A stretch of DNA of 50,013 bases, taken from the sequence record OZ346186.1; one strand, given 5' to 3'. Positions 1 to 49,492 of this stretch are shown piece after piece; positions within the stretch are counted from its first letter, which is position 1, and each line of letters begins with the position of its first letter. The translations under genes were made by a program, and so were the position numbers. The stretch is from a phage. The notes beneath the pieces are model-generated. The model was not told the origin of the DNA, did not search any database, and saw only the letters and a list, made by a program, of their open reading frames with translations.

Positions 1-1569
1 ATGCTGATTTGGGAAGACTTAACAGCGGCGCAAAAACGCGCCGTTAAGGAAATGAGCGAATATTCATTCGAAAAGATGATCCGCATTTGGTTTCAACTTC
101 TCCAGGGGCAAAGGTTCTTAGGAAACTGGCATTTCAGTTACCTATGTAGCGAAGTTGAAAAAATCATCAAAGGAGAGTCACAGAATGTAATTTTCAACAT
201 AACGCCAGGCAGTGGTAAAACAGAGATATTCTCGATCCACATGTCACCTTATGCGTCATTGAAAAGTAAGAAGGTGCGAAATCTTAATCTTTCGTTTAGT
301 GATGGCCTTGTCCAGCAGAATAGCAACCGAATTAAGGAGATTATTGGTTCTCCAGAATGGCAGGAGCTATGGCCTGGAAAGCTGGCAAAGGCGAGCGCAA
401 AGGATTTGATTGTAACCGATGGCGGCAAGGTTAAATTACAAGTTAACTCGCGTTCTATCGGTGGTCAGGTTACTGGTCTGCGTGGCGGATACATGGACGA
501 TGGATTTACTGGTATGCTGGTTCTTGATGATCCAGACAAACCGGATGACATGCTTTCTAAGGTAAAGCGAGAAGCCGGACACATGCGGCTAAAGAACACG
601 GTTCGATCGCGTCGAATGAAGGACACCACGCCAATTGTGATGGTTCAGCAACGCCTACACGTCAATGATTCAACATGGTTCATGACAAACGGCGGCATGG
701 GCGGTATCAAGTTTAAGGTGGTTAGTATTCCGGCGCTCGTTACTAAGGAATATCGCGAAACACTTCCTGATTGGTTAAAGCCTGAGTTTGATCGCGATGT
801 TTTGTCCAGTAAGCCAGTGATGATTGATGGAGTTGCTCATTATTCATTCTGGCCTGCTAAGGAAAGCGCGGAGGAATTGCTTGCGCTTCGAAATGCTGAT
901 CCGTACACGTTCGCTAGTCAGTATCAGCAACAGCCTGTTGCGCTTGGCGGTAACGTGTTTAAAACAGAGTGGTTTCAGTATTACGGCAGCAGCGAGAAAT
1001 GCACGCTACCAAAACCGGATCGCTTTGAATATACATTTATCACGGTTGATACCGCACAGAAAACAGGGGAGCTTAACGACTACTCCGTGATCTGTTATTG
1101 GGGGATGTATAAAGATCGCGTTTACTTCATTGATGGTGTTCGCGGAAAATGGGAAGCACCAGACCTTGAGACTAATTTTGTTGCGTTCGTTAATCAGTGC
1201 TGGAAGCGCAATAAAGAATGCGGAACGTTGCGAAGGATTCATGTTGAAGATAAATCGTCTGGCACTGGTTTGATTCAGAGTGCAGCGAAAAAAATAATGA
1301 TCAAGATCAATCCCGTTCAGCGCGATAAAGACAAGGTTACTCGTGCAATGGACGCAGCGCCAGTAATGCGCGCCGGACGCGTAGCACTTCCAGAATCCCA
1401 CCCTATGCTGGCTGAGATACTGGCTGAAGTTGCGGCGTTTACATTCGATGATTCGCATCCTCATGATGATATTGTTGATAACATCATTGATGCTGTTAAC
1501 ATTGAAATGAACATGGCAGATGATCCGGTAGGAAGAATGAAAAAATTGGCAGGTTTGCGGAACAAATAG
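1..1569 (+). CDS. terL: terminase large subunit
   Basis: 522-aa ORF at head of late operon, directly upstream of portal; window begins at its ATG, which overlaps the stop of the terS ORF at the window end if circular. Confidence 0.8.
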   Translation: MLIWEDLTAAQKRAVKEMSEYSFEKMIRIWFQLLQGQRFLGNWHFSYLCSEVEKIIKGESQNVIFNITPGSGKTEIFSIHMSPYASLKSKKVRNLNLSFSDGLVQQNSNRIKEIIGSPEWQELWPGKLAKASAKDLIVTDGGKVKLQVNSRSIGGQVTGLRGGYMDDGFTGMLVLDDPDKPDDMLSKVKREAGHMRLKNTVRSRRMKDTTPIVMVQQRLHVNDSTWFMTNGGMGGIKFKVVSIPALVTKEYRETLPDWLKPEFDRDVLSSKPVMIDGVAHYSFWPAKESAEELLALRNADPYTFASQYQQQPVALGGNVFKTEWFQYYGSSEKCTLPKPDRFEYTFITVDTAQKTGELNDYSVICYWGMYKDRVYFIDGVRGKWEAPDLETNFVAFVNQCWKRNKECGTLRRIHVEDKSSGTGLIQSAAKKIMIKINPVQRDKDKVTRAMDAAPVMRAGRVALPESHPMLAEILAEVAAFTFDDSHPHDDIVDNIIDAVNIEMNMADDPVGRMKKLAGLRNK

Positions 1570-1595
1570 CACGAATCGACAAACCAATATATAAT
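1566..1595 (+). promoter_or_regulatory. degenerate box copy (ATAGCACGAATCGACAAACC) + TATAAT after terL
   Basis: stop TAG embedded; TATAAT 1590-1595; immediately followed by terminator hairpin. Confidence 0.3.
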
Positions 1596-4810: not shown

Positions 4811-5323
4811 ATGGCTACAATTGGAGCAAGCTACTTTGCTGTAATGTCTCGTGCGTTACCTGGTCAGGTTTCTGACACTTCAGCTTATAATATTGATGGC
4901 GCTTGTGTTCTTGAGAATGCGTCAGGCAGTCAGAATCAGTCTGTTTTTGTTGGTGTGGCGGTCCAGCATGGCGGCGTTGATGCGATGGGTAATAAACTGA
5001 TCAAGCCTATGGCGGCAAGCGGCAAGGCTTACGGCGTTGCAATTCGTTCTCACTTTCAGACAACTTCGTCTGACGGTCGAATGATTTATGAATCTGGCAG
5101 CGGAATCAACGTAATGACTGAGGGGCGTGTTTGGATGTTGGCTAAAGACGCTTCCGCGCCAGCTTTCGGCACTGCAATCAAACTGTCTGATGATGGTCAG
5201 GTTGATACCACGTCTGGCACTATCGAAACAAACTGGATCGCGACTGGTGATTTCACCAAGTTTCAAGACTTGAAGCTGGTAGAGGTTCAGGTGCAAAAAG
5301 TTCCCGCAGTTTCAGCAGGTTAA
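4811..5323 (+). CDS. head structural protein (paralog of next gene)
   Basis: 170 aa; SD aaggag; followed by rho-independent terminator; shares sequence pattern with 5369..5803. Confidence 0.5.
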   Translation: MATIGASYFAVMSRALPGQVSDTSAYNIDGACVLENASGSQNQSVFVGVAVQHGGVDAMGNKLIKPMAASGKAYGVAIRSHFQTTSSDGRMIYESGSGINVMTEGRVWMLAKDASAPAFGTAIKLSDDGQVDTTSGTIETNWIATGDFTKFQDLKLVEVQVQKVPAVSAG

Positions 5324-5330
5324 TAAATAT

Positions 5331-5354
5331 GGCGCTCACTGAGCGCCTTTTTTA
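5331..5354 (+). terminator. rho-independent terminator
   Basis: ggcgctc act gagcgcc + TTTTTT. Confidence 0.65.
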
Positions 5355-5368
5355 TATTTGGGGTTATC

Positions 5369-5803
5369 ATGAGTGATTATTCAGTCATTGTTGGCGCTGA
5401 GTCGCCAGGGTGCATGGTCGATTCTTCAATAATGGTGATTAACGGATCTTTCGTGTGCGGAGATGAATTTATTGCGCCAGGTAAGATTGTGCGACTATCA
5501 CATATAACAAATGGATACAAAATAGCAAGTGTTAATGGGGATCTCGTTATTGGCGTGGCAGTAAGGCCGCCGGACTCGTGCATATATGAGGAGGGCGATC
5601 CAGTTAATGTGGTTAGTCGAGGTAATGTTTGGTGCTTAACTTATGAGAGCGAAGCGCCAGAATATGGAGATAAAGTATTTGTAACGCAAGATGGAGATGT
5701 GGCATACAGTGAAGGCGACTTGCTGATTGGTTGGATCTTTACTGGCGAACATGTAAAGGTTGATCATGATTCATATATTGTCGGGGTAAGCATTGACCCA
5801 TAA
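5369..5803 (+). CDS. head structural protein (paralog of previous gene)
   Basis: 144 aa; similar Gly/Val-rich pattern to 4811..5323. Confidence 0.5.
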   Translation: MSDYSVIVGAESPGCMVDSSIMVINGSFVCGDEFIAPGKIVRLSHITNGYKIASVNGDLVIGVAVRPPDSCIYEEGDPVNVVSRGNVWCLTYESEAPEYGDKVFVTQDGDVAYSEGDLLIGWIFTGEHVKVDHDSYIVGVSIDP

Positions 5804-5815
5804 CACAAAATTATG

Positions 5816-5843
5816 TTGCACGTTTAACAAAAAATGCTATCAT
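5816..5843 (+). promoter_or_regulatory. sigma70-like promoter TTGCAC-16-TATCAT upstream of major capsid gene, with an inverted box copy in its spacer
   Basis: -35 5816-5821, -10 5838-5843; box reverse complement 5822-5840. Confidence 0.4.
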
Positions 5844-5886
5844 TGGTCCGTTACATACTAACGACCTTTATATATGGAGGAAGAAA

Positions 5887-6861
5887 ATGGAAAAAGAAAA
5901 ATTTGATCAGCTAGATGCGGATATTGTTTCTAGCTATCTGGCTACTCGCGGCGTTAAAGGTGATGCGTCAGATATGGGTATTTGGGCCGCTCAAGAACTG
6001 CATAAGATTCGCTCTAATGCTTACGAGAAAGAATATCCGGCAGGTTCAGCGCTTCGTGTATTCCCTGTAACTAATGAGCTTTCTGATACTGATAAGACTT
6101 TTGAATATCAGATGTTTGACAGAGTTGGTTACGCAAAAATTATCGCTGATTACACCGACGACCTGCCGACCGTTGACGCGCTGATGTCTAGCGAGTTCGG
6201 TAAAGTATTCCGCCTGGGTAACTCGTTCTTGATCTCCATTGACGAAATCAAGGCTGGTCAGCGCACTGGTAAGAGCCTTTCCACTCGCAAGGCAAACGCA
6301 GCGCAAAACGCTCATGATCAGGAAGTTAACCGCCTGGTGTTTAAGGGTTCAAAGCCGCATAAGATTCTTTCGGTGTTTGAACACCCTAACCTGACAAAGA
6401 TCGTGTCAACTGGTTGGTTAAGTGCTGATGAAAACACTAAGTTCCCGCAGGCAGCATCTGATGAACTGGAAAAGGCTATTGAAACCATTCAGACCATCAC
6501 CAATGGTCAGCACCGCGCAACCAATATCTTGATTCCGCCGTCTATGCGCAAGGTTCTTTCCGTTCGAATGGAAAACACCACTGAAAGTTATCTGGAATAC
6601 TTCCAGAAACAAAACAGCGGAATCACCATCGACTCAATCGCAGAGCTTGAGGATATTGATGGCGCTGGAACGAAAGGTTGCCTGGTATATGAGAAAGACC
6701 CGATGAACATGTCGATCGAAATTCCAGAAGCATTTAACATGCTTCCGGCGCAACCAAAAGATCTGCATTTCAAAGTTCCGTGCACTTCAAAATGTACCGG
6801 CCTGACGATTTACCGTCCGTTTACGCTAGTACTTATTACTGGCTTGAAAAAATCAGGTTAA
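5887..6861 (+). CDS. major capsid protein
   Basis: 324 aa; own promoter-like element upstream and strong terminator downstream; position between head accessory genes and connectors. Confidence 0.6.
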   Translation: MEKEKFDQLDADIVSSYLATRGVKGDASDMGIWAAQELHKIRSNAYEKEYPAGSALRVFPVTNELSDTDKTFEYQMFDRVGYAKIIADYTDDLPTVDALMSSEFGKVFRLGNSFLISIDEIKAGQRTGKSLSTRKANAAQNAHDQEVNRLVFKGSKPHKILSVFEHPNLTKIVSTGWLSADENTKFPQAASDELEKAIETIQTITNGQHRATNILIPPSMRKVLSVRMENTTESYLEYFQKQNSGITIDSIAELEDIDGAGTKGCLVYEKDPMNMSIEIPEAFNMLPAQPKDLHFKVPCTSKCTGLTIYRPFTLVLITGLKKSG

Positions 6862-6874
6862 TCGTATAACATTT

Positions 6875-6902
6875 GGGAATCCTTAACTGGATTCCCTTTT
6901 TT
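6875..6902 (+). terminator. rho-independent terminator after major capsid gene
   Basis: gggaatcc..ggattccc + TTTTTT. Confidence 0.7.
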
Positions 6903-6917
6903 ATTGGAGGTTATGAA

Positions 6918-7190
6918 ATGGCTAAAGAAAAAACTGTAACGTTAAAGGTTTCCGGTGTGTGCCTTATCATTGTTGATGGCGAGCATTATCATCCAGGTAA
7001 AGAGTTTGATGTAGAAGAGTCAAAATTGAAAACAAGCGCGTTTGAATATCTAATTGCAAAAGGCGATCTTGAAGTTAAAGACAACTCCGCATTGAACGAA
7101 GAAATTAAACAGAGCGCAGCAAGCAAGCGTAAAAAAGACCCGCGAGAGGGCAAGAGCAAAGCCGAACTTGAAGACGGCGGCATCTATTAA
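6918..7190 (+). CDS. hypothetical head-associated protein
   Basis: 90 aa from ATG 6918 with SD ggagg; the longer track ORF from 6873 would read through the terminator hairpin. Confidence 0.5.
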
Positions 7191-7195
7191 TAAAG

Positions 7196-7220
7196 AGGGC
7201 GCTTATAGCGCCCTTTGTCA
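7196..7220 (+). terminator. terminator-like hairpin
   Basis: agggcgc ttata gcgccct + TTGT. Confidence 0.45.
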
Positions 7221-7237
7221 TATCTGGAGGAAACACA

Positions 7238-7654
7238 ATGGTTGATGAATTTTTCACTGACGCAGAAATCACGCAGCAAATCGTGAAATTAGCTCCACCG
7301 ATGAAGCAGATTGATCCAGATTTAATGGTGGCATGGATTGAGCTTGCAAAGGAATTTGTTTGCAAGAAGCGGTTTAAAGAATCATATCCTAAAGCGGTCG
7401 CTCTTTATACGTTGCACCTTATGACGCTTGACGGAGCGATGAAACAGGAAGGGGAAAGCGTAGATAGTTACTCGCGGCGCGTGGCGTCATTTTCCCTGAC
7501 TGGTGAATTTAGTCAGACATTTGATCGTGTGTCCGGCGATTCAAGCGGAAAAGAGATAAGGCAAACTCCGTGGGGTAAAATGTATGAAACGTTAAATCGC
7601 AAAAAAGGCGGCGGATTTGGTCTTGTTACTGGATTTAGGAGACGTTGCAAATGA
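7238..7654 (+). CDS. head-tail connector/adaptor (putative)
   Basis: 138 aa; SD ggagg; position between capsid and tail genes. Confidence 0.45.
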
Positions 7655-8022
7655 ACTATAACGAGATCGCAAGAATGGCAACCGAAGGAATTAACTTCTT
7701 TAGTGATGGCAACGGTGAGTTTAAGTGCATAACGCAGCGTGGAAGCGTTGAAATCATCGGAGGCGAAGAAGTAGAAAAGCCAGAGATCAGTGTAATGATT
7801 AAGGGTTTAATTCGCTCCCCAAAAGTCCGCGAGATTGACGGCGAGACAATACGAGTAACCGATAAGTTGGGAGTTTTTAACAATAAAGTTGAAATTAAGA
7901 ACGGGTATCATATTGATGTTGATGGTGAATTATATGTTGTAGTTGAAGCAAGACCAATCAGACAAACCAATGTCACTGTTGCTTATCGGCCTATTTTGAG
8001 AAGGATTTCTGTACATGGCTAA
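7651..8022 (+). CDS. head closure / neck protein (putative)
   Basis: 123 aa from ATG 7651 (SD aggaga 8 nt upstream); overlaps previous stop. Confidence 0.45.
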
Positions 8023-8458
8023 AAACTACACGATAAGGGAATTTCACGGCAACATTGATGCGTGGATAAACGCCGTTGATAATGGCCTGAAAGATTGCGT
8101 GGAGTTGTTCGCCGAAAAAGTGCATACAGATCTTGTTAAGCGTTCTCCGGTAGATACTGGTCGTTACCGTGGAAACTGGCAGGTAACAGCAAATAAGCCG
8201 CCATTGTATGCGCTTAACCAGTACGATAAGCACGGCGACAAAACGATAGCGGAAGGAAAACGCGCCATATACGCAATATTACGAGGTGGCGGAGCGGTAA
8301 GGGCCATTTATTTTTCAAATATGCTTATTTACGCTAACGCGCTTGAATACGGTCATTCAAAACAAGCGCCAGCGGGTGTGCTTGGTATTGTTGCCGTGAA
8401 GTTGCGTTCATATATGGCTGAAGCAATAAAAGAGTCGAGGGCTAAAAATGCACTATGA
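8015..8458 (+). CDS. HK97 gp10-like neck/tail completion protein
   Basis: 147 aa; motif PVDTGRYRGNW resembles the HK97 gp10 family signature. Confidence 0.5.
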   Translation: MAKNYTIREFHGNIDAWINAVDNGLKDCVELFAEKVHTDLVKRSPVDTGRYRGNWQVTANKPPLYALNQYDKHGDKTIAEGKRAIYAILRGGGAVRAIYFSNMLIYANALEYGHSKQAPAGVLGIVAVKLRSYMAEAIKESRAKNAL

Positions 8459-8846
8459 ATTAATGCTATCGGCGCGTAAGGCGCTGGCGACTGAATACGA
8501 GAGCAGATTCACGATCGCTTATGAAAACGTAGAGTTTACGCCACCTGGTGACGGTTCGCCGTGGTTGAAGTTTGACTATGCCGAAGTTGACACAGAATAC
8601 TTGTCATTGGATCGAAAATGCGTTTCATATATCGGAATGATTCAGGTTGGCATTGTGTTTCCACCAGGTTACGGAACTGACAGGCCGCGCGTTCTAGCTA
8701 AAGAGATTGCGCAATTCTTTTACGATGGTAAAATGCTGGAGCATGGTTATATATATGAGGGTGCAAGAGTTCACAAGCCGCTCAAGAGTGAAAGCGGTTG
8801 GATTCTCCCAATAAGGTTTTATGTTCGAATTGAAACAAAGGAGTAA
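8448..8846 (+). CDS. tail terminator (putative)
   Basis: 132 aa, immediately upstream of major tail protein. Confidence 0.45.
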   Translation: MHYELMLSARKALATEYESRFTIAYENVEFTPPGDGSPWLKFDYAEVDTEYLSLDRKCVSYIGMIQVGIVFPPGYGTDRPRVLAKEIAQFFYDGKMLEHGYIYEGARVHKPLKSESGWILPIRFYVRIETKE

Positions 8847-8851
8847 AAATT

Positions 8852-9514
8852 ATGCATTTACCAAATGGATCGCAAATTTTCGTTGAGAGCAATCGCGGAA
8901 GCGCTATTGAGGCAACGGCAGTATCAAACGCTAAAGATCCTGTATTCACCGTTGCATCTGGCGGTACTGCGTACAAGAAAGGTGATTATGTTATCATCAC
9001 TGCGTCCTCCTGGGGCAAGCTGATTGATCGTGTTATGCGTGTAAAGGCTAACGGTGAAGAAACAAGCGTGACTCTTGAGGGTGTTGATACTACCGATCAG
9101 AACGTGTTCCCGACTGGCGGCACTGCATCTTTTGCCAAGATTGATGCATGGACTGAGATCCCTTGCGTTCAGGATTTGTCGCAGGACGGCGGAGAACAGC
9201 AATATTACACTTATCAGTGTTTGGCGGACGACCAGGAGCAGCAGTTACCTACCTATAAGAGCGCCGTTTCTCTGACCTACACTTTTGCGCACGAATACGA
9301 TAACGCGATCTATCCGTTACTTCGTGCAGCAGACGAATCCGGTGAGGTGACCGCGCTTCGCATGTATGTACCGAAAGCGAAAGAGATGCGTTGCTGGGCT
9401 GGTGTCCTTTCGTTTAACGAGATCCCACAAACGACCGTTAACGAAATGGAAACTGTTTCCCTGTCTGTATCCCTGAAAGGTCGATTCACCTTCCTACCTT
9501 CTCAAGTAGCATAA
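8852..9514 (+). CDS. major tail protein
   Basis: 220 aa; SD aaaggag; strong terminator after stop; directly upstream of chaperone/frameshift and tape measure. Confidence 0.6.
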   Translation: MHLPNGSQIFVESNRGSAIEATAVSNAKDPVFTVASGGTAYKKGDYVIITASSWGKLIDRVMRVKANGEETSVTLEGVDTTDQNVFPTGGTASFAKIDAWTEIPCVQDLSQDGGEQQYYTYQCLADDQEQQLPTYKSAVSLTYTFAHEYDNAIYPLLRAADESGEVTALRMYVPKAKEMRCWAGVLSFNEIPQTTVNEMETVSLSVSLKGRFTFLPSQVA

Positions 9515-9520
9515 TCACAA

Positions 9521-9544
9521 GGGGCGTTGCGCCCCTTTTTTTGT
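9521..9544 (+). terminator. rho-independent terminator after major tail gene
   Basis: ggggcg ttg cgcccc + T9. Confidence 0.7.
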
Positions 9545-9581
9545 TACTGTACAATCATGCTACACGATTCATAATCAATTC

Positions 9582-9600
9582 TTTTAACAAAAAGTGCTAT
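9582..9600 (-). promoter_or_regulatory. box copy in orientation opposite to the late operon
   Basis: plus strand reads TTTTAACAAAAAGTGCTAT between terminator and chaperone gene. Confidence 0.35.
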
Positions 9601-9613
9601 CAAGGAGAAAGAA

Positions 9614-9931
9614 ATGTCAAAAATGAAATTGACGATTGGGCCGCTTCCTGACTTTAAATTACCAGTGAAATTTGCAATGCCTAACGGAGAAGATCAAACG
9701 ATTATCTTCACAGTTCGCCACCGCAAAACAAGTGAGATTCACGAGCGATACACGTCAGATACTCCAATGGGCGATGTTGAAATGATCACCTTCCTTGCTT
9801 CAGGTTGGAATCTTGATGATGAATTTAACGAAGAAAATATTAAACAGCTTCTTGATTACTACCCAGCAACAGCAATCGGATTAACTAGCGCATACATGAA
9901 AGCGCTTGCGGGGCAGCGAGTAAAAAACTAA
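9614..9931 (+). CDS. tail assembly chaperone (lambda G-like, short form)
   Basis: 105 aa between major tail protein and tape measure; ends VKN* with slippery A_AAA_AAC at 9922-9928. Confidence 0.7.
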   Translation: MSKMKLTIGPLPDFKLPVKFAMPNGEDQTIIFTVRHRKTSEIHERYTSDTPMGDVEMITFLASGWNLDDEFNEENIKQLLDYYPATAIGLTSAYMKALAGQRVKN

Positions 9932-14861: not shown

Positions 14862-15438
14862 ATTATCTGGATCTTTAGGCCGAAGATTTGGAGTATTTCA
14901 TAAGCTGGCTGTTGATTCATACCCAGAAGCAATACGCGCACTATCTTCGCAGGTGGAAGGATTCAAGGACTACATGCAAAGCGAAGTAGGATCGCGTATG
15001 CGTTACGCTGTATTTGTTGACGGTAAGAATGTAGGACAGCACGATGAAAAAGCGTGGCAATGCGCAAAGGAAGTGAGGATTATTCCAATCCCAACAGGTT
15101 CAAAGTCTGGTGGGTTGTTTCAGGTTGTTCTTGGGGCGGTTATTATGGCGACTGCATTTTTCACTGGCGGCGCTTCACTTGCGTTGATGGGTGCTTTTGC
15201 ATCGTCTGCTTTCATGATGGGTGGTGCTATGGTGCTTGGCGGCGTAATGCAAATGATTTCACCACAGCAAGGCGGGTCGCGGCTATCATCCCAATCAGCA
15301 GAGAATAAGCCGTCTTACGCTTTTGGCGGTGCAGTTAACACAACGGCGGCAGGATACCCAATACCATTGCCATACGGTCAAAGGACCGTCGGCGGAGCTA
15401 TCTGGTCGGCTGGTAGTTATGCAGAAGATAAGGCTTAA
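14842..15438 (+). CDS. tail assembly protein (lambda gpI-like)
   Basis: 198 aa with Gly/Ala-rich hydrophobic C-terminal half; position after K-like gene. Confidence 0.65.
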   Translation: MTLKVIKLSGSLGRRFGVFHKLAVDSYPEAIRALSSQVEGFKDYMQSEVGSRMRYAVFVDGKNVGQHDEKAWQCAKEVRIIPIPTGSKSGGLFQVVLGAVIMATAFFTGGASLALMGAFASSAFMMGGAMVLGGVMQMISPQQGGSRLSSQSAENKPSYAFGGAVNTTAAGYPIPLPYGQRTVGGAIWSAGSYAEDKA

Positions 15439-15447
15439 TATAAAAGA

Positions 15448-15472
15448 GTCGCGCGTTGCGCGGCTTTTTTTT
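15448..15472 (+). terminator. rho-independent terminator before J-like gene
   Basis: GC-rich hairpin + T8. Confidence 0.6.
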
Positions 15473-15517
15473 GCCCGTATAATTCAACAAATCAAATAGC
15501 ACAAAAGGTGAAAAAGC

Positions 15518-19964: not shown

Positions 19965-20192
19965 TTACATACTGCAATCAGCGTTTTTAAAGTTATCAAT
20001 ACTTACCCACTGAAAATTAAACGGATATCCAGCCTTAACAAGAGTGCGGTCGCCAACTCGTTTTACTCCAAAAATAGCAACTGAATACTGCATACCGCTA
20101 TTTTCATAAATAGCCGTGCATTCACGCTTAGGCATATTTGCGCAACCAGTCAGGGTTGCGGCTGCAATCAAAACGGCGATTAATTTTTTCAT
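19965..20192 (-). CDS. lipoprotein, Cor-like superinfection-exclusion candidate
   Basis: 75 aa, lipobox LTGC after 16-aa signal peptide; located just after tail genes as cor is in T1/phi80-type phages; preceded by box promoter. Confidence 0.5.
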   Translation of the reverse strand: MKKLIAVLIAAATLTGCANMPKRECTAIYENSGMQYSVAIFGVKRVGDRTLVKAGYPFNFQWVSIDNFKNADCSM

Positions 20193-20223: not shown

Positions 20224-20267
20224 ACTATACACGATCTTGCGGCGGTCGTTTAGCAAAAAGTGCTATT
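20224..20267 (-). promoter_or_regulatory. conserved box (variant) + TATAGT, promoter cassette for Cor-like lipoprotein gene
   Basis: minus-strand box 20249-20267, -10-like 20224-20229, 18-nt spacer. Confidence 0.5.
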
Positions 20268-20340
20268 CTGTTCTTTTTGTTTTCCTGCGTTCTCAAATCT
20301 GCGGAGGCGTAAATTTAGCGCAAAAAGTGAGCAACAATAG

Positions 20341-20520
20341 AGCGTAATAAATACAGATAAATATATATATATATATATAAATCAATAAGTTAGCAGTATA
20401 TATATTTATATTTGTTTTTTCTTGTTATCTATGTTTTGTGTGATTTTGTGTGTCTGGTAATTTTATGTGGTTGTGTATGTGTCAGTGATTGTGTGTGTCT
20501 ATATATCTATATACGGCGCA
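20341..20520. repeat. AT-rich (TA)n and GT-rich low-complexity region with IHF-like site AATCAATAAGTTA; homolog of 40501-40720
   Basis: (TA)9 at 20361-20379; 15-mer aaatcaataagttag at 20379-20393; TGTG-rich 20431-20500. Confidence 0.6.
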
Positions 20521-21754: not shown

Positions 21755-21835
21755 ACAGCACAAATAGCTAAACAAATGAAAAATGCGGTGTTATAATTCA
21801 CCGCACAAGTTAACAACAAGCGTGAGGAAATAAAC

Positions 21836-27105: not shown

Positions 27106-27162
27106 ATGCACCTCAAACAAAAAAAAGCCTGACAGATGATAACATCATGCCAGGCATTGTTT

Positions 27163-27636
27163 TTAGCAATTAGTGCTTTCAGGTTTATACAGGAATCCTC
27201 CAGGTTCATAATCTGACATTCTTACCACTCGCAACATTTCACGCTTATCACATCTCTTTGTGAGCGGTTTGCCATTGGAATCAAATCGCAGATCTGGACG
27301 GCAGAATGACGCGCGATAGCCTTGACAACCATATTTCTTGTAATCGTTATGCACCTTTTGAGCGCCAGCGGCTGAAATCATACCGCGAACGCGCCACTGA
27401 TTTACAGTTTGCTGGCTAACGTTAAGACGCTTTGCCATTGCTGACACGCTGCCGTAATACTCAATAAGAATGTCAAGCCGTGCTTTTAGTCCGGCGCGCA
27501 CTTCATCTTTTAAAACATAGTATCCTGTAGGGCGCTTGCGCTTTTTCTTATCTTTACCCCGTCGAGTTCCGTTATTGCCATTAATTGTGCGCTTGTCAAT
27601 CTTGCCTGTTGATACTGCGATTCGCTGTTCTTTCAT
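27163..27636 (-). CDS. HTH DNA-binding protein (putative transcription regulator)
   Basis: 157 aa; basic N-terminus (KDKKKRKR) and helix-turn-helix-like AKRLNVSQQTVNQWR. Confidence 0.45.
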   Translation of the reverse strand: MKEQRIAVSTGKIDKRTINGNNGTRRGKDKKKRKRPTGYYVLKDEVRAGLKARLDILIEYYGSVSAMAKRLNVSQQTVNQWRVRGMISAAGAQKVHNDYKKYGCQGYRASFCRPDLRFDSNGKPLTKRCDKREMLRVVRMSDYEPGGFLYKPESTNC

Positions 27637-27648
27637 TATTCATTCTCC

Positions 27649-27692
27649 AATAGCATTTTTTGTTAAACGATGATTTAATGATTGTGTATTAT
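27649..27692 (+). promoter_or_regulatory. conserved box AATAGCATTTTTTGTTAAAC + 18-nt spacer + TATTAT (promoter cassette for helicase operon)
   Basis: box 27649-27668, -10-like 27687-27692; divergent from HTH regulator gene. Confidence 0.5.
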
Positions 27693-29765: not shown

Positions 29766-30171
29766 TAAAGGCGATTATCTGGAGTTTTACGAAAGAGATC
29801 CGACAGATACTCTGAAAGAGGAATCGCACCAGATCGGGGCGTTTCAATGGGTAACTTATGCTCATCCTGAATTACTGGCATGGCATACGAAAAACGAGGG
29901 CGACAAGGGAATCGCCACCGCAATGATGGATCAGCAAGCCGGACTCGTTAAGGGCGTAAGTGATTTTATCATCCTGATTGGATTAAAAGGCCGTTACCCG
30001 TTTGCAGCAATTGAGATGAAACGCGTCAATAAGTCAGGCAAGGGGAAGGCTTCACCAGTCAGCAAGGAGCAAAAAGCCTTCTTGCGCCGTGTGCGTGAGC
30101 TTGGCGGATTCGCTGCCGTAACATACGGATATAAGCAATTCATGATCGCGGTAGAATACATGATGAAATAG
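29752..30171 (+). CDS. VRR-NUC domain nuclease
   Basis: 139 aa; D...E.K nuclease core (DFIILIG...AIEMKR) typical of VRR-NUC, commonly paired with phage helicases. Confidence 0.6.
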   Translation: MAMTDKGDYLEFYERDPTDTLKEESHQIGAFQWVTYAHPELLAWHTKNEGDKGIATAMMDQQAGLVKGVSDFIILIGLKGRYPFAAIEMKRVNKSGKGKASPVSKEQKAFLRRVRELGGFAAVTYGYKQFMIAVEYMMK

Positions 30172-30211
30172 CACTTTTTGTTAAAACAGGCGCGAAGGAT
30201 TGCGCCATAAT
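30167..30211 (+). promoter_or_regulatory. conserved box + hairpin + CATAAT (promoter cassette upstream of dam)
   Basis: box 30167-30187 includes stop TAG of VRR-NUC gene; hairpin ggcgc..gcgcc; -10-like 30206-30211. Confidence 0.5.
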
Positions 30212-30951: not shown

Positions 30952-31209
30952 ATGCAAAAAGAAAGAAGCGTTTATTTAAATGAAACTGGCGAATGGTTGT
31001 TATTTCGCGCTATGGTATGCGATTCACTTGATAAAAACCCTAACGTGAAAAAGATGATTGATTGCGATCCGTGGGAATTTTCAAGCGCATTAGATATGAG
31101 CTTTGAGGAGACAAAAAAACTCCCGCTTGAAAAATGGAACGAGAAAATCAGAAATGACATGCAAGAATTTGTCGATTCGTGGAATTTTCAGCACGGAATA
31201 ATCCACTAA
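30952..31209 (+). CDS. hypothetical protein
   Basis: 85 aa from ATG 30952 (SD ggag); track ORF 30604..31209 is the same frame extended over dam. Confidence 0.55.
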   Translation: MQKERSVYLNETGEWLLFRAMVCDSLDKNPNVKKMIDCDPWEFSSALDMSFEETKKLPLEKWNEKIRNDMQEFVDSWNFQHGIIH

Positions 31210-31252
31210 TAGCACTTTTTGTTAAAACGCCCGACCTTGTGTCGGGCATAAT
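31208..31252 (+). promoter_or_regulatory. conserved box + hairpin + CATAAT
   Basis: box 31208-31228; hairpin gcccgac..gtcgggc; -10-like 31247-31252. Confidence 0.5.
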
Positions 31253-34429: not shown

Positions 34430-34474
34430 AATATACCCGATACGAGATCGGGAGTCTTAACAAAAAGTGCTATT
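34430..34474 (-). promoter_or_regulatory. conserved box + hairpin + TATATT (minus strand)
   Basis: box 34454-34474 includes stop of 34470..34664; hairpin cccgat..atcggg; -10-like 34430-34435. Confidence 0.5.
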
Positions 34475-34664: not shown

Positions 34665-34983
34665 CGCTCATTTCTCCGATCCTTAAAACATCCCTTACCC
34701 ATTCGTTTTGCATACCTTCCAGACTGTAAAGTTCAAACGAGAAAGGTCGATTTGCAGACCCTTTCTTACACCAGAACTTTCCACCAACTCCATCAAGATA
34801 ACCAGCGGTCATCATTCTTGCGCAAAACTCTTTTGAAACGGCGGTTGCAAACATTCTCGGCGTAAATCCTGCGGCCCTTGCGAGCCGCTCACATTCTCTA
34901 TGCTGAAATATAAATTTTGCGATATGTTGACGTGTAAACCATTCGAATGACTCACACCAGCGATACAGATCCAGAAGAAACAT
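34591..34983 (-). CDS. hypothetical protein
   Basis: 130 aa; start overlaps stop of replication protein gene. Confidence 0.5.
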   Translation of the reverse strand: MFLLDLYRWCESFEWFTRQHIAKFIFQHRECERLARAAGFTPRMFATAVSKEFCARMMTAGYLDGVGGKFWCKKGSANRPFSFELYSLEGMQNEWVRDVLRIGEMSDEELFTSNANRQNIEVLRRKFNLT

Positions 34984-36596: not shown

Positions 36597-36641
36597 ATAA
36601 TACCGCACCAATGCTACCCGCATTTAACAAAAAATGCTATT
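36597..36641 (-). promoter_or_regulatory. conserved box (variant) + TATTAT, upstream of replication ATPase gene
   Basis: box 36621-36641 includes stop TAG of 36637..36858; -10-like 36597-36602. Confidence 0.5.
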
Positions 36642-37271: not shown

Positions 37272-37317
37272 GATTATGCCAGGCTTTTACACCTGGCTTT
37301 TAACAAAAAGTGCTATT
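37272..37317 (-). promoter_or_regulatory. conserved box + hairpin + ATAATC (minus strand)
   Basis: box 37297-37317 includes stop TAG of methyltransferase-like gene; hairpin gccagg..cctggc; -10-like 37272-37277. Confidence 0.5.
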
Positions 37318-38672: not shown

Positions 38673-38715
38673 ACTATACCAGGTTTGAGAAATATTGTTT
38701 AGCAATTCGTGCTAT
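38673..38715 (-). promoter_or_regulatory. conserved box (variant ATAGCACGAATTGCTAAAC) + TATAGT (minus strand)
   Basis: box about 38697-38715; -10-like 38673-38678. Confidence 0.45.
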
Positions 38716-39322: not shown

Positions 39323-39369
39323 ATAATATACCAATCAGAGGCGCATCGGTTTTAACAAAAAGTGCTATT
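39323..39369 (-). promoter_or_regulatory. conserved box + TATTAT (minus strand)
   Basis: box 39349-39369 abuts stop TAA of 39369..39635; -10-like about 39323-39328. Confidence 0.5.
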
Positions 39370-40200: not shown

Positions 40201-40246
40201 CATTATGCCGAATCCAGTCAGGCACGTTTTAACAAAAAGTGCTATT
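40201..40246 (-). promoter_or_regulatory. conserved box + ATAATG (minus strand), first promoter of leftward early block
   Basis: box 40226-40246; -10-like 40201-40206. Confidence 0.5.
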
Positions 40247-41385: not shown

Positions 41386-41638
41386 GGCATTAATTGGAGT
41401 TTTGATTGCAATTGCTACCCTGACCGGATGCGAAAAGGCATCGGAATCAACGGTTGTCGTAGGCGTGGAGTCAGATTTCAAAGTCGGTCGCCTGTTCACT
41501 GTTGACGGATGCACAGCATACAGATTCTATGATAACGGTCGCGCGATCTATTACACCAATTGCAAAGGCGCAACGGATAGCACGTACAACAGCGGAAAGA
41601 ACGTAATGCACCAGCAAGTCACAACAGATATTAAATAG
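41378..41638 (+). CDS. lipoprotein
   Basis: 86 aa; signal peptide MNKALIGVLIAIATLTGC nearly identical to that of the Cor-like gene; stop TAG embedded in box. Confidence 0.55.
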   Translation: MNKALIGVLIAIATLTGCEKASESTVVVGVESDFKVGRLFTVDGCTAYRFYDNGRAIYYTNCKGATDSTYNSGKNVMHQQVTTDIK

Positions 41639-41678
41639 CACTTTTTGTTAAAACGCCAGGCGCAAAACCTGGCATAAT
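41634..41678 (+). promoter_or_regulatory. conserved box + hairpin + CATAAT
   Basis: box 41634-41654 includes stop TAG; hairpin gccagg..cctggc; -10-like 41673-41678. Confidence 0.5.
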
Positions 41679-41710
41679 AGCCTCATCGAAACGAGATTGA
41701 GGAAAACAAA

Positions 41711-42097: not shown

Positions 42098-42141
42098 ATA
42101 GCACTTTTTGTTAAAACTCAAAAACGATAACCAGGCATAAT
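42097..42141 (+). promoter_or_regulatory. conserved box + CATAAT
   Basis: box 42097-42117; -10-like 42136-42141; followed by about 200-nt leader. Confidence 0.5.
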
Positions 42142-43501: not shown

Positions 43502-43544
43502 ATAGCACGAATTGTTAAAACTCAAATGTGGGGCCAGGTATAAT
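43501..43544 (+). promoter_or_regulatory. conserved box (variant AATAGCACGAATTGTTAAAAC) + TATAAT
   Basis: box 43501-43521; -10 43539-43544 inside inverted repeat ggcc..ggcc. Confidence 0.5.
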
Positions 43545-44564: not shown

Positions 44565-44722
44565 CCTGGTTACTTTTAATCTTTGTCACAAGTTACAACT
44601 CCGCCGCTATTGAATCGCAAGAGTTCCACGGCGAATCAAGATGCCAGGAAGCACGAAAACAAGTTATTCTCCACATGTCAGATAGTGGGAAAGATGTAAC
44701 AGCGTTATGCGTTCGTAAATAG
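44561..44722 (+). CDS. 53-aa small secreted/membrane protein
   Basis: hand-translated; hydrophobic N-terminus MTWLLLIFVTSYNSAA; ATG overlaps upstream stop; stop TAG embedded in box. Confidence 0.4.
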   Translation: MTWLLLIFVTSYNSAAIESQEFHGESRCQEARKQVILHMSDSGKDVTALCVRK

Positions 44723-44762
44723 CACTTTTTGCAAAAACAGATTGTCGGGCTTGCTGTATAGT
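44718..44762 (+). promoter_or_regulatory. conserved box (variant ..TTTGCAAAAAC) + TATAGT
   Basis: box 44718-44738 includes stop TAG; -10-like 44757-44762. Confidence 0.5.
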
Positions 44763-45433: not shown

Positions 45434-46024
45434 ATGAAACGAGACATTATCATCCTTAACGGACCGCCAGGAGTTGGCAAAGATACGATTGCGGCATACT
45501 TAACGGGTCATCGTTACGCAGCGGTTAAAGCGTCATTTAAACAGCCTATGTTCGATATTGCATTCTCCATGCTTGGCGTTTACCGATATGACGAGTTCAT
45601 TGATCTGTATAACGACCGCGAGCAGAAAGAAAAGCCTCAAGCAATCTTGCAAGGCAAGTCGCCTCGCCAGTTCATGATCTGGATTAGCGAAGAAGTCATG
45701 AAGCCAGCTTTTGGCGAGCAATATTTTGGGGATCGCATGGTTGAGCAAGTACACGAGATGTACAGAGATTTAGCTGTTGTAATTAGTGATGGCGGATTCC
45801 CTGAAGAAATCAAGCCGCTCGTTAAGGCAGGCCATGAAGTTCACATTTGCCGACTGCATCGCGAAGGATTCACGTTTGATGGCGATTCGCGAAACTATAT
45901 TGACCTGAGCGGATACCATCACCGAGTCAAGCATTACGACTTCACAATGACTGATGGCGAGCCAGAAAAGACTGTTGACGAGATCATCAAAACTGTCCAG
46001 TGGAAACACATTAAGATTGAATAG
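45434..46024 (+). CDS. deoxynucleoside monophosphate kinase (T4 Dnk-like)
   Basis: P-loop GPPGVGKDT and QGKSPRQ segment resembling T4 gene 1 kinase; start 45434 has SD ggaga (track start 45419). Confidence 0.6.
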   Translation: MKRDIIILNGPPGVGKDTIAAYLTGHRYAAVKASFKQPMFDIAFSMLGVYRYDEFIDLYNDREQKEKPQAILQGKSPRQFMIWISEEVMKPAFGEQYFGDRMVEQVHEMYRDLAVVISDGGFPEEIKPLVKAGHEVHICRLHREGFTFDGDSRNYIDLSGYHHRVKHYDFTMTDGEPEKTVDEIIKTVQWKHIKIE

Positions 46025-46064
46025 CACGAATTGCTAAAAGCGGGGCGCAATGCCTCGCTATAAT
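46020..46064 (+). promoter_or_regulatory. conserved box (variant ATAGCACGAATTGCTAAAA) + TATAAT
   Basis: box 46020-46039 includes stop TAG of kinase gene; -10 46059-46064. Confidence 0.5.
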
Positions 46065-47078: not shown

Positions 47079-47366
47079 ATGGCTAAAAGCAATCGTAAAA
47101 TGTTGATTAACGCATTCGAAAAGGCGGCGCTTGAGCGTGGTTGGAATGACTCATTTCACACGGCAAACTGTATCCGCCGTTACGGATTCAAGAATTGTCG
47201 CTCATGGGCGCGTCAAATGGCTTCATGGTATGATCTTGATGCGCATTACCTTGATATGGATTGCGCCCTGGTTGAAATGATTGAGCAGGCCGCATTAGAG
47301 GATCGACCATTAACGCAATCTGATTTTGACGATTTTGTGCGCGATGAAATCTATTACATGAGCTAA
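47079..47366 (+). CDS. hypothetical protein
   Basis: 95 aa from ATG 47079 (SD aaaggagg). Confidence 0.5.
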   Translation: MAKSNRKMLINAFEKAALERGWNDSFHTANCIRRYGFKNCRSWARQMASWYDLDAHYLDMDCALVEMIEQAALEDRPLTQSDFDDFVRDEIYYMS

Positions 47367-47409
47367 TAGCACTTTTTGTTAAAACTTCCGCGAGGGCATT
47401 TGTTAAAGT
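47365..47409 (+). promoter_or_regulatory. conserved box + TAAAGT
   Basis: box 47365-47385 overlaps stop TAA; -10-like 47404-47409. Confidence 0.45.
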
Positions 47410-49413: not shown

Positions 49414-49420
49414 CAAACTA

Positions 49421-49443
49421 CCCGCCAAATGGCGGGTTTTTTA
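49421..49443 (+). terminator. rho-independent terminator before terS
   Basis: cccgcc aaat ggcggg + TTTTTT. Confidence 0.65.
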
Positions 49444-49459
49444 TTGTCTGCAATTTGTC

Positions 49460-49465
49460 TATAAT
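49460..49465 (+). promoter_or_regulatory. TATAAT -10 element upstream of terS without obvious -35 (possible activator-dependent late promoter)
   Basis: TATAAT 27 nt upstream of terS ATG, just after terminator. Confidence 0.3.
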
Positions 49466-49492
49466 GAGGCTTTGTTATAAGGAGGGCGCATT

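Follow-up and report, generated by a model that had tools for sequence, protein, structure and literature searches.

Reversed copies of a marbox-type early repeat at the capsid and tail-chaperone promoters of a T1-like phage

Sequence record OZ346186.1 is a 50,013-nucleotide stretch of phage DNA, analysed here in full and called the window, which is 96–98% identical to Escherichia phage haarsle and its relatives pSf-1 and SFP17 (Drexlerviridae, Hanrivervirus; T1-like siphoviruses). Its plus strand carries the genes from terL to the tail fibre through ~19.9 kb, beyond which replication, lysis and many small early genes are arranged in four blocks whose strands alternate. Throughout this genome we followed an asymmetric 20-bp box that matches the marbox, the site of the host proteins MarA, SoxS and Rob, and that recurs before genes in one orientation. 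At two places, directly before the major capsid and the tail chaperone genes, the box is inverted relative to the genes, as the initial annotation had pointed out; both copies are real, although it began them one base early, at 5822 and 9582 instead of 5823 and 9583. The 18-mer TTTAACAAAAARTGCTAT marks them on the plus strand at 5823–5840 and 9583–9600, opposite to the 17–18 other copies, and phrog matches support both genes that follow. The features of the two loci are listed below, every transcription start site in this study being a predicted one and P_MCP denoting the promoter of the major capsid protein gene.

5799 to 5812, plus strand: A-rich, UP-element-like block ATAACACAAAA just before the -35 hexamer (1.4–2.0 bits at non-enforced positions over 54 distinct, pattern-selected contexts)
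5816 to 5821, plus strand: P_MCP -35 hexamer TTGCAC (TTGCAC, TTGACG, TTGACC or TTGAAC in orthologues)
5821 to 5840, minus strand: reversed box copy 1, ATAGCATTTTTTGTTAAACG, a 20-bp marbox-type site that fills the P_MCP spacer, ~-29 to -10
5835 to 5843, plus strand: P_MCP TGn-extended -10 TGC TATCAT, in which TGCTAT is the end of the box (hexamer TATCAT, TATTAT, TATATT or TATTCT in orthologues)
5845 to 5866, plus strand: hairpin starting 1–2 nt past the P_MCP -10, with a consensus fold of 10 pairs, 3 of them with compensatory changes across genera
5887 to 6861, plus strand: major capsid (major head) protein gene (phrog_264, E 1.4e-98; the annotation of relatives agrees)
9519 to 9545, plus strand: intrinsic terminator after the major tail protein gene (by scanner, 8 pairs, 6 GC, then a T-run)
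9548 to 9575, plus strand: alternative rightward promoter-like sequence TGTACA-16-CATAAT (by scanner, 9/12), specific to the window, with an implied start at the beginning of the box
9550 to 9555, plus strand: rightward -10 TACAAT of the predicted tail-chaperone promoter, 1 nt from the leftward hexamer and back-to-back with it
9557 to 9562, minus strand: candidate leftward -10, TAGCAT, spaced exactly 18 nt from the 20-bp box in class II register, with a predicted leftward start near 9550
9581 to 9600, minus strand: reversed box copy 2, ATAGCACTTTTTGTTAAAAG, a 20-bp site 13 nt before the chaperone ATG
9614 to 9931, plus strand: tail tape-measure chaperone gene (phrog_569, phrog_17368; TfmS or tape measure chaperone in relatives)

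The repeat itself is already known. The 2024 reannotation of phage TLS (PMC11447400) described a 21-nt direct repeat, aaATAGCACnnnTTGnTAAAA, in 18 intergenic copies 'in the direction of transcription', ~76 nt before start codons and present also in T1, Rtp and Rogue1; its authors suggested stoperators, enhancer sites or UP elements, and placed the function of the repeat among the open questions for T1-like phages. The box in the window is the same element, since it has that sequence and intergenic placement, the same TTT/GAA/AAA variant classes, the ~76-nt distance to start codons and ~18–20 copies per genome; only the published direction of transcription does not hold for the copies at 5823 and 9583. 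Table S1 of that paper lists DR7 (neg, 15044..15024, atATAGCATTTTTTGTTAAAc), reversed and directly before the TLS capsid gene, on which its text is silent and which is the counterpart of our copy at 5823; the paper contains no description of the promoter contexts of reversed copies or of a marbox match. A search of the literature likewise found no paper linking marboxes with T1-like phages. What is new relative to the searchable literature is therefore the pair of reversed copies in two late-promoter architectures, their conservation, and the match to a marbox in class II register.

In work from the Grainger laboratory, MarA, SoxS and Rob bind a site, the marbox, that is defined as 5'-gcannwwntgnnaaa-3', and class II promoters are those in which a forward marbox overlaps the -35; a 20-bp form, AYnGCACnnWnnRYYAAAYn, is given in PMC2064960. 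The phage box GCACTTTTTGTTAAA fits all ten specified positions, as do its GAA and TAA variants. Searching the window with the consensus returned 18 zero-mismatch matches against 1.69 expected, and all 18 are copies of the repeat: both reversed ones and 16 others. An earlier pattern, allowing up to three mismatches over the whole window, had found 16 copies against 0.29 expected (0 of 100 shuffles reached 16), and the consensus added three that it had missed, at 27162–27179 (minus), 38698–38715 (minus) and 46021–46038 (plus), which are GCACTAATTGCTAAA and GCACGAATTGCTAAA variants, each with a strong -10 at 17–18 nt. In building a box profile, a loose anchor drew in ~20 unrelated TAGCA sites, and our interpretation is limited to the 25 distinct ATAGCAY 20-mers of four phage genomes. 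These vary mostly at positions 8–10, 14 and 19–20 and keep GCA(C/T), TG and AAA, so that the variable positions are mainly the N, W and Y of the consensus; position 19 is A instead of Y in many phage copies, as it is in the chromosomal micF promoter. The layout is asymmetric and two-part, with GCAC and YAAA ~7 bp apart across a poorly conserved A/T-rich spacer. Among host sites, a SoxS site located in Salmonella by chromatin immunoprecipitation sequencing (ChIP-seq), GCATTTTTTGCTAAA, is an exact variant of the phage box with an identical 15-mer, and the mar marbox CCACGTTTTGCTAAA differs from it at two positions.

Other readings of the letters were tried and dropped. The sigma54 consensus is TGGCAC-N5-TTGC; the box has TAGCAC-N3-TTG, with the wrong spacing and no GG, and a sigma54-like site would leave the conserved -10 unexplained. 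The box gave no convincing match to the consensus sequences of IHF, Fis and CRP. Reading all copies as promoters in the TTTAAC...GCTAT direction would give the early copies TATTTA-type hexamers, formed with the upstream TAA stop, and no -35. By its sequence, the box matches a marbox-type asymmetric 20-bp activator site, and this site is the element known in T1-like phages as the 21-nt direct repeat.

On the gene strand the box reads ATAGCAC...TAAA at 17–18 intergenic sites, its reverse complement appearing only at 5823 and 9583; the plus-strand copy at 20249 is no exception, because it is forward relative to the minus-strand cor gene. A full forward cassette consists of an upstream stop codon, ATAGCACTTTTTGTTAAA, 20 nt, (C/T)ATAAT, 4–5 nt, TCATCGAAACGA, a Shine–Dalgarno (SD) sequence and ATG. 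The forward copies and the hexamers that follow them are these:

20247 to 20266, minus strand: forward class II copy for cor, -10 TATAGT at 17 nt
21755 to 21774, plus strand: degenerate forward copy ACAGCACAAATAGCTAAACA, -10 TATAAT at 17 nt
27160 to 27179, minus strand: forward copy AAAGCACTAATTGCTAAAAA before the primase gene, -10 TATCAT at 18 nt, equivalent to TLS DR10
27650 to 27669, plus strand: forward class II copy for the helicase-side genes, -10 TATTAT at 17 nt, overlapping a TATAAT on the opposite strand
30168 to 30187, plus strand: forward class II copy, -10 CATAAT at 18 nt
31209 to 31228, plus strand: forward class II copy, -10 CATAAT at 18 nt
34454 to 34473, minus strand: forward class II copy with AAG replacing AAA, -10 TATATT at 18 nt
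36621 to 36640, minus strand: forward class II copy, -10 TATTAT at 18 nt
37297 to 37316, minus strand: forward class II copy, -10 CATAAT at 18 nt
38696 to 38715, minus strand: forward class II copy, GAA variant, -10 TATAGT at 17 nt
39349 to 39368, minus strand: forward class II copy, -10 TATATT at 18 nt
40226 to 40245, minus strand: forward class II copy, -10 CATAAT at 18 nt
41635 to 41654, plus strand: forward class II copy, read as box, 18 nt, CATAAT, N4, TCATCGAAACGA, SD, ATG
42098 to 42117, plus strand: forward class II copy, -10 CATAAT at 18 nt
43502 to 43521, plus strand: forward class II copy, GAA variant, -10 TATAAT at 17 nt
44719 to 44738, plus strand: forward class II copy, -10 TATAGT at 18 nt
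46021 to 46040, plus strand: forward class II copy, GAA variant, -10 TATAAT at 18 nt
47366 to 47385, plus strand: forward class II copy, -10 TAAAGT at 18 nt

According to ChIP-seq and start-site mapping in Salmonella, class II sites lie ~41 bp before the start, and class II promoters are without a -35. The 17–18 forward copies have just this geometry, standing in forward orientation over the -35 position with a centre at about -41, ~18 bp to the -10 and no -35; relative to the capsid and chaperone genes, the reversed copies at 5823 and 9583 do not. The closest host counterpart is micF, ACAGCACTGAATGTCAAAAC, 18 nt, TAGAAT, beside which the phage cassettes read ATAGCACTTTTTGTTAAAAC, 17–18 nt, (C/T)ATAAT at 17–18 sites, nearly all of their -10 hexamers agreeing with the consensus in at least five of six positions. 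If the phage -10 is taken as -12 to -7, its GCAC falls at -47 to -44, and in the cryo-electron-microscopy structure of Rob, RNA polymerase and micF, Rob touches -47G and -45A of GCAC. The phage and the micF-type promoters served by MarA, SoxS or Rob (or by RamA) thus share a forward, asymmetric 20-bp box in place of a recognisable -35, 18 bp to the -10 and the same GCAC position. They differ in that the phage is virulent and carries ~18 such promoters per 50 kb with a near-invariant, consensus-perfect box, whereas host marboxes are degenerate; unlike micF, too, reversed copies 1 and 2 are not in activating geometry for their downstream genes. We infer that the forward copies may be class II promoters served by a host activator of the MarA/SoxS/Rob family.

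Two phage systems offer a further comparison. Middle promoters of phage T4 keep a sigma70 -10 and replace the -35 by a MotA box (plus AsiA) centred near -30, read by phage proteins made after infection. Both designs put an activator box in place of the -35, whereas the box studied here is centred near -41, which fits a host activator site. The stoperators of mycobacteriophage L5, one suggestion of the TLS authors, are likewise many, short, asymmetric, intergenic and biased in orientation; they lie in intergenic DNA that is transcribed, are bound by the repressor of a temperate phage and block elongation depending on their orientation, whereas TLS is described as virulent (PMC11447400). Forward copies in the window stand at a fixed 17–18 bp before a -10, which is activator geometry, and the early open reading frames (ORFs) scanned include no CI-type repressor, so an L5-type stoperator was set aside. 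T1-like phages are generally virulent.

It is also conceivable that the box needs no sequence-specific factor and acts on RNA polymerase alone, as a UP-like element or displaced -35, or on the RNA, as a boxA-like antitermination site. It is A/T-rich with a TTTTT..AAA pattern, and UP elements were among the suggestions of the TLS authors; the late region is rich in terminators. The reversed orientation also holds TTTAACAA, which we take to be the 3' part of rrn boxA. Several features make such an action highly improbable: TTGTTA inside the box is no -35, because its distance of 22 nt to the -10 is too great; UP elements require neither 18 invariant asymmetric bases nor conservation inside a spacer; TTTAACAA is all that the box has in common with boxA, whose GCUC core is absent; forward copies precede the starts predicted for them; and copy 1 would lie outside the P_MCP transcript.

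Two further features of the early cassettes may be recorded here. The conserved block TCATCGAAACGA, 4–5 nt past the early -10 in all early cassettes (for example at 41683–41694), is placed so that the predicted early transcripts begin with it. About one-third of early promoters carry a variable-sequence inverted repeat, such as GCCAGGcgcaaaaCCTGGC, within the 18 nt that separate box and -10 (for example at 41656–41674, 31230–31248 and 37278–37296), which may terminate or stabilise the upstream transcript.

We surveyed orientation in T1, TLS, haarsle and the window. Across these four genomes, truly reversed copies occur only before late structural genes: the capsid gene in four of four, the chaperone gene in three of four and the side tail fibre gene in T1. 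The last of these, at T1 34902–34919, lies 6 nt past TAAAAT and directly before the side tail fibre SD, so that the box covers the predicted start. Late regions also hold degenerate forward copies without class II geometry, at 1566–1585 (plus) and 15496–15515 (plus) in the window and at 8362 and 25021 in T1. One in the window follows terL and precedes the portal gene; another degenerate late copy, equivalent to TLS DR8, lies between TATAAT and the ATG of the tail-tip J gene; and a T1 copy overlaps the -10 and start of the terS promoter. The survey leads us to conclude that early promoters use the site in one strict activating register, and that late promoters carry it in several non-activating positions and in either orientation.

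Copy 1 is built into the predicted capsid promoter. The initial annotation had placed it in the spacer of a plausible sigma70 promoter, and TTGCAC-16-TATCAT is indeed present at 5816–5843; its -10 (5838–5843) starts within the box, from which also come 15 of the 16 spacer bases, the TGn that extends the -10 and bases 1–3 of the hexamer. Among 12 relatives chosen by gene annotation, 11 carry the reversed box at the orthologous capsid site, covering Hanrivervirus, Tlsvirus, Warwickvirus, Henuseptimavirus, Sertoctavirus, Eclunavirus, Tunavirus T1 and two unclassified Klebsiella phages (at least seven named genera); Rtp-like IME253 is the only one without it. Ten of the 11 carriers read TTG(C/A)(A/C)N, 1 nt, TTTARCAANNNRTGC, TAT(C/T/A)(A/T/C)T, and in Klebsiella phage K50_evo26 the box carries two substitutions and the spacer is 17 nt long. 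A scan of IMG/VR gave 56 pattern matches directly before capsid homologues of 54–98% identity. We rely on the annotation-anchored comparison, because information content computed for P_MCP from contexts picked with the search pattern is partly circular. The hairpin that follows is weak in the window (-6.6 kcal/mol, z -0.14), and the TLS reannotation calls its equivalent terminator T35 (PMC11447400). A transcript started at P_MCP is predicted to be without most of the 5' arm of the hairpin, and a read-through transcript would hold the whole of it.

Around copy 1, no antisense -10 is conserved at 17–18 nt in the 54 contexts: the hexamer is TATGGG in the window and TAGCAC, TATGCG, TATTGG and others elsewhere, at most 4/6 and mostly without T6. 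A leftward class II promoter, which would have a usable antisense -10 at 17–19 bp, was therefore rejected for copy 1, and with it the antisense promoter that had been proposed there. Class I marboxes are reversed, precede the -35 and are centred ~62 or 72 bp ahead of the start. Class I activation of the capsid and chaperone genes fits the orientation of both copies, and was rejected on the implied starts, ~5892–5902 and ~9652–9662, which lie inside coding sequences. Since no antisense -10 is conserved and the class I start would fall inside an ORF, copy 1 appears to be an activating site for neither direction.

What copy 1 does resemble is a marbox set between a sigma70 -35 and -10, for it reads TTGCAC, 1 nt, the 15-mer marbox, TATCAT. 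The core AAAAAATGCTATTAT (within ACAGCAAAAAATGCTATTAT) of the E. coli rob promoter (K-12 NC_000913 4635311–4635400) is nearly identical to the P_MCP core AAAAAATGCTATCAT (TTTAACAAAAAATGCTATCAT). The RE2 half of the rob marbox is degenerate, whereas phage copy 1 is a perfect match. Schneiders and Levy are said to have found in 2006 that MarA, SoxS and Rob repress rob through a backward marbox placed between its -35 and -10. The pbpG promoter likewise has a marbox in its spacer, through which MarA and SoxS repress (PMC12052159); here the likeness to copy 1 is one of position between -35 and -10. Both rob and pbpG are host genes under stress control, whereas copy 1 would gate a late gene of a phage. 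On this sequence likeness, copy 1 is probably an operator.

A spacer marbox may also act in the opposite sense. At flgBP2, a marbox at -16 to -30 of the core promoter activates a sigma28 promoter through DNA distortion, MarA perturbing the -11 base pair (PMC12781870), and a MarA/SoxS/Rob-like factor might in the same way activate the capsid promoter by distorting DNA next to its -10, which the GCA end of the box abuts. The flgBP2 site, although likewise in the core-promoter spacer by the -10, lies ~3 bp further upstream and serves a sigma28-dependent, melting-defective promoter. P_MCP, by comparison, should need no help, because it has a TGn-extended near-consensus -10, a 5/6 -35 in most genera and the A-rich upstream block. 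The sigma70 precedent pbpG is one of repression, as reportedly is rob, and a single factor for capsid and early genes would abolish temporal order. Activation from the spacer is thus distinctly unlikely in our judgement.

The second architecture, before the tail chaperone gene, joins a terminator, two back-to-back -10 hexamers and copy 2. Nearly every lineage, box-carrying or box-less, has TAnAAT after the terminator T-run; the scanner called only TGTACA-16-CATAAT at this site, and its CATAAT is not conserved in T1, tonn or BrunoManser. Because copy 2 lies at about +21 to +38 of the rightward promoter, it is not a core-promoter marbox of the rob/pbpG type. We compared 28 distinct stretches that separate a major tail protein gene from a chaperone gene: the reversed box is present in 15, no box in 12 and a forward box in one (Rtp-like), presence and absence being interleaved among subfamilies. 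An antisense TAnnnT stands exactly 18 bp from the 20-bp box in 16 of 16 box-carrying sequences and in none of 11 box-less ones, its positions 1, 2 and 6 fixed and 3–5 variable, which leaves a usable antisense -10 throughout; its TGn extension is found in 10 of the 12 relatives shown and is absent in the window. Copy 2 and TAGCAT are thus a predicted leftward class II promoter, directed toward the terminator and the 3' end of the major tail gene, and at this copy the antisense promoter put forward in the initial annotation gains support in silico. The same layout recurs in the divergent regulator/helicase region at 27650, where the class II promoter drives a real gene and the leader of the regulator gene, which runs the other way, contains the box in reverse, 13 nt ahead of the regulator ATG.

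Reversed copies might instead be inert leftovers of early cassettes, inserted backwards by recombination between repeats. The repeats are numerous enough to mediate rearrangement, copy 2 occurs in only about half of the lineages, and the copy 2 locus of Rtp-like IME253 holds a forward cassette plus an additional gene. We give this almost no credence, for copy 1 keeps its position, orientation and fusion with the -35 and -10 down to 54% capsid identity where its flanks diverge, and the copy 2 hexamer keeps T1, A2 and T6 and varies at 3–5, the signature of selection on a -10. The IME253 cassette, at 4965–5364 in the same tail protein–chaperone locus, is of forward class II type and drives an extra gene of 82 amino acids (aa); the site seems to be a hotspot of cassette gain and loss. 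A common design is seen at late promoters, in which an intrinsic terminator hairpin and T-run are followed within a few bases by TAnAAT, without a -35 (window 9519–9555, 15450–15485 and 49420–49470; T1 8320–8360); these are the 'transcriptons' of the T1 literature.

No AraC/XylS-type protein was recognisable among the 20 early ORFs of at least 85 aa, where Pfam scans returned no HTH_18 or HTH_AraC at E <= 0.01, and tblastn with MarA and SoxS queries gave nothing better than E ~2; on both outcomes a MarA-like protein encoded by the phage was rejected. The only helix-turn-helix (HTH) protein found among the early ORFs scanned, which held no CI-type repressor, is this one:

27163 to 27636, minus strand: 157-aa Cro-type HTH 'transcriptional regulator' (phrog_2856; PDB Cro-like 5w8y, 3bd1)

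Its matches to Pfam YdaS_toxin and P22_Cro fall just short of the cut-off. The HTH spans residues ~54–91, between a very basic N-terminus and a Cys-rich C-terminus, and the protein could be the late-gene activator.

Putting these elements together, we place about even weight on a composite mechanism, drawn from sequence, in which a host-type marbox would drive the early promoters and its reversed copies would hold the late promoters back. The forward box would replace the -35 of ~18 early promoters, in the order box, 17–18 bp, (C/T)ATAAT, and a single factor, most likely host MarA, SoxS or Rob (RamA in some hosts), would activate these cassettes. The reversed copies would place the same site where the downstream late gene cannot be activated. 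A factor bound at copy 1 would most likely serve as an operator-bound repressor that keeps the capsid promoter low while early promoters are active; at copy 2, as long as the factor is active, RNA polymerase would be pulled to the leftward promoter, sending antisense RNA into the major tail gene and occluding the rightward tail promoter. Late genes would then rise once factor activity drops, and we can only speculate that the drop might come from titration by replicating phage DNA (~20 sites per genome), from decay of MarA and SoxS after host shut-off, or from a phage anti-activator. MarA and SoxS are short-lived proteins. The operator or early-to-late switch role proposed in the initial annotation we rate as plausible. 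With confidence slightly short of even, we extend this to the family: the Drexlerviridae programme may be wired to host MarA/SoxS/Rob, with ~18 marboxes capturing activator and RNA polymerase early, reversed ones (capsid, tail, regulator leader) holding late genes off, and the switch made by loss or titration of this host protein instead of one encoded by the phage.

A number of observations weigh against this mechanism. The generic promoter scanner does not call P_MCP in the window, because its -35 TTGCAC agrees with TTGACA in only 3/6 positions. At P_MCP the effect may also have the opposite sign, because the spacer marbox of flgBP2 activates. At copy 2, the 16/16 versus 0/11 association may partly reflect co-inheritance of a single inserted segment. 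The literature search found no binding, ChIP, transcript or start-site mapping for T1-like phages or Drexlerviridae. T1-like phages grow well under laboratory conditions, although cells that are not stressed contain little MarA and SoxS and have most of their Rob in aggregates. A Keio screen with the TLS-like phage LL5 does not have rob, marA or soxS among its listed matches, from which it follows that no single one of them is essential, but they are redundant with one another at marboxes. Finally, the box is conserved beyond what a degenerate marbox needs, for example in its ATA prefix, which may indicate a dedicated factor.

These last two points also speak for a phage protein as reader of the box, the candidate being the 157-aa Cro-type regulator; the likeness to a marbox would then be convergence or coincidence, and the reversed copies operators for the phage factor. 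Conserved among T1, TLS, haarsle and Rtp, the regulator has an HTH and carries the box in its own leader. Such a reader is nevertheless unlikely. Of the ~18 forward copies, most stand before early or replication genes without a -35, so that an activator is needed before any phage protein exists, and the regulator cannot serve the first promoters, because no phage protein is present at the moment of infection. Proteins with a single Cro-type HTH normally sit on dyad-symmetric operators, and the box is without dyad symmetry; GCAC and AAA ~7 bp apart are the layout typical of dual-HTH AraC-family monomers; and the register of the box is identical to that of micF.

Some observations concern the window as a whole. 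Position 1 is the exact terL start codon and the length of 50013 is about one genome, for which reasons the window looks like a complete, circularly permuted genome with terS probably off the right end. The cor gene (phrog_1119) lies at 19965 to 20192 on the minus strand, and a (TA)n run at ~20340–20365 lies where AT-rich sequence separates the cor promoter from the exonuclease VIII gene, a place at which haarsle has an annotated repeat_region. Some 20 'Campylobacter phage' records (E6, MG065643, is one) share ~92% identity with this coliphage-type genome, which probably means that the host was entered wrongly or that the records come from contamination.

T1-like phages often contaminate laboratories and are also candidates for therapy, and the control of their transcription is essentially unexplained. 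A marbox in class II register is a concrete, testable mechanism that, if true, would answer the published open question on the 21-nt repeat. It would also explain why reversed copies occur only at late promoters, where an early-firing factor would block or divert RNA polymerase, and would add a phage example to the few known core-promoter marboxes. If the reading is true, the timing and yield of a virulent phage would depend on the mar/sox/rob state of its host, that is, on its state of antibiotic and oxidative stress. Antibiotic tolerance is set by the same state, as is the amount of TolC, which TLS-type phages use as their receptor, and the mechanism would thus bear on combinations of phages with antibiotics.

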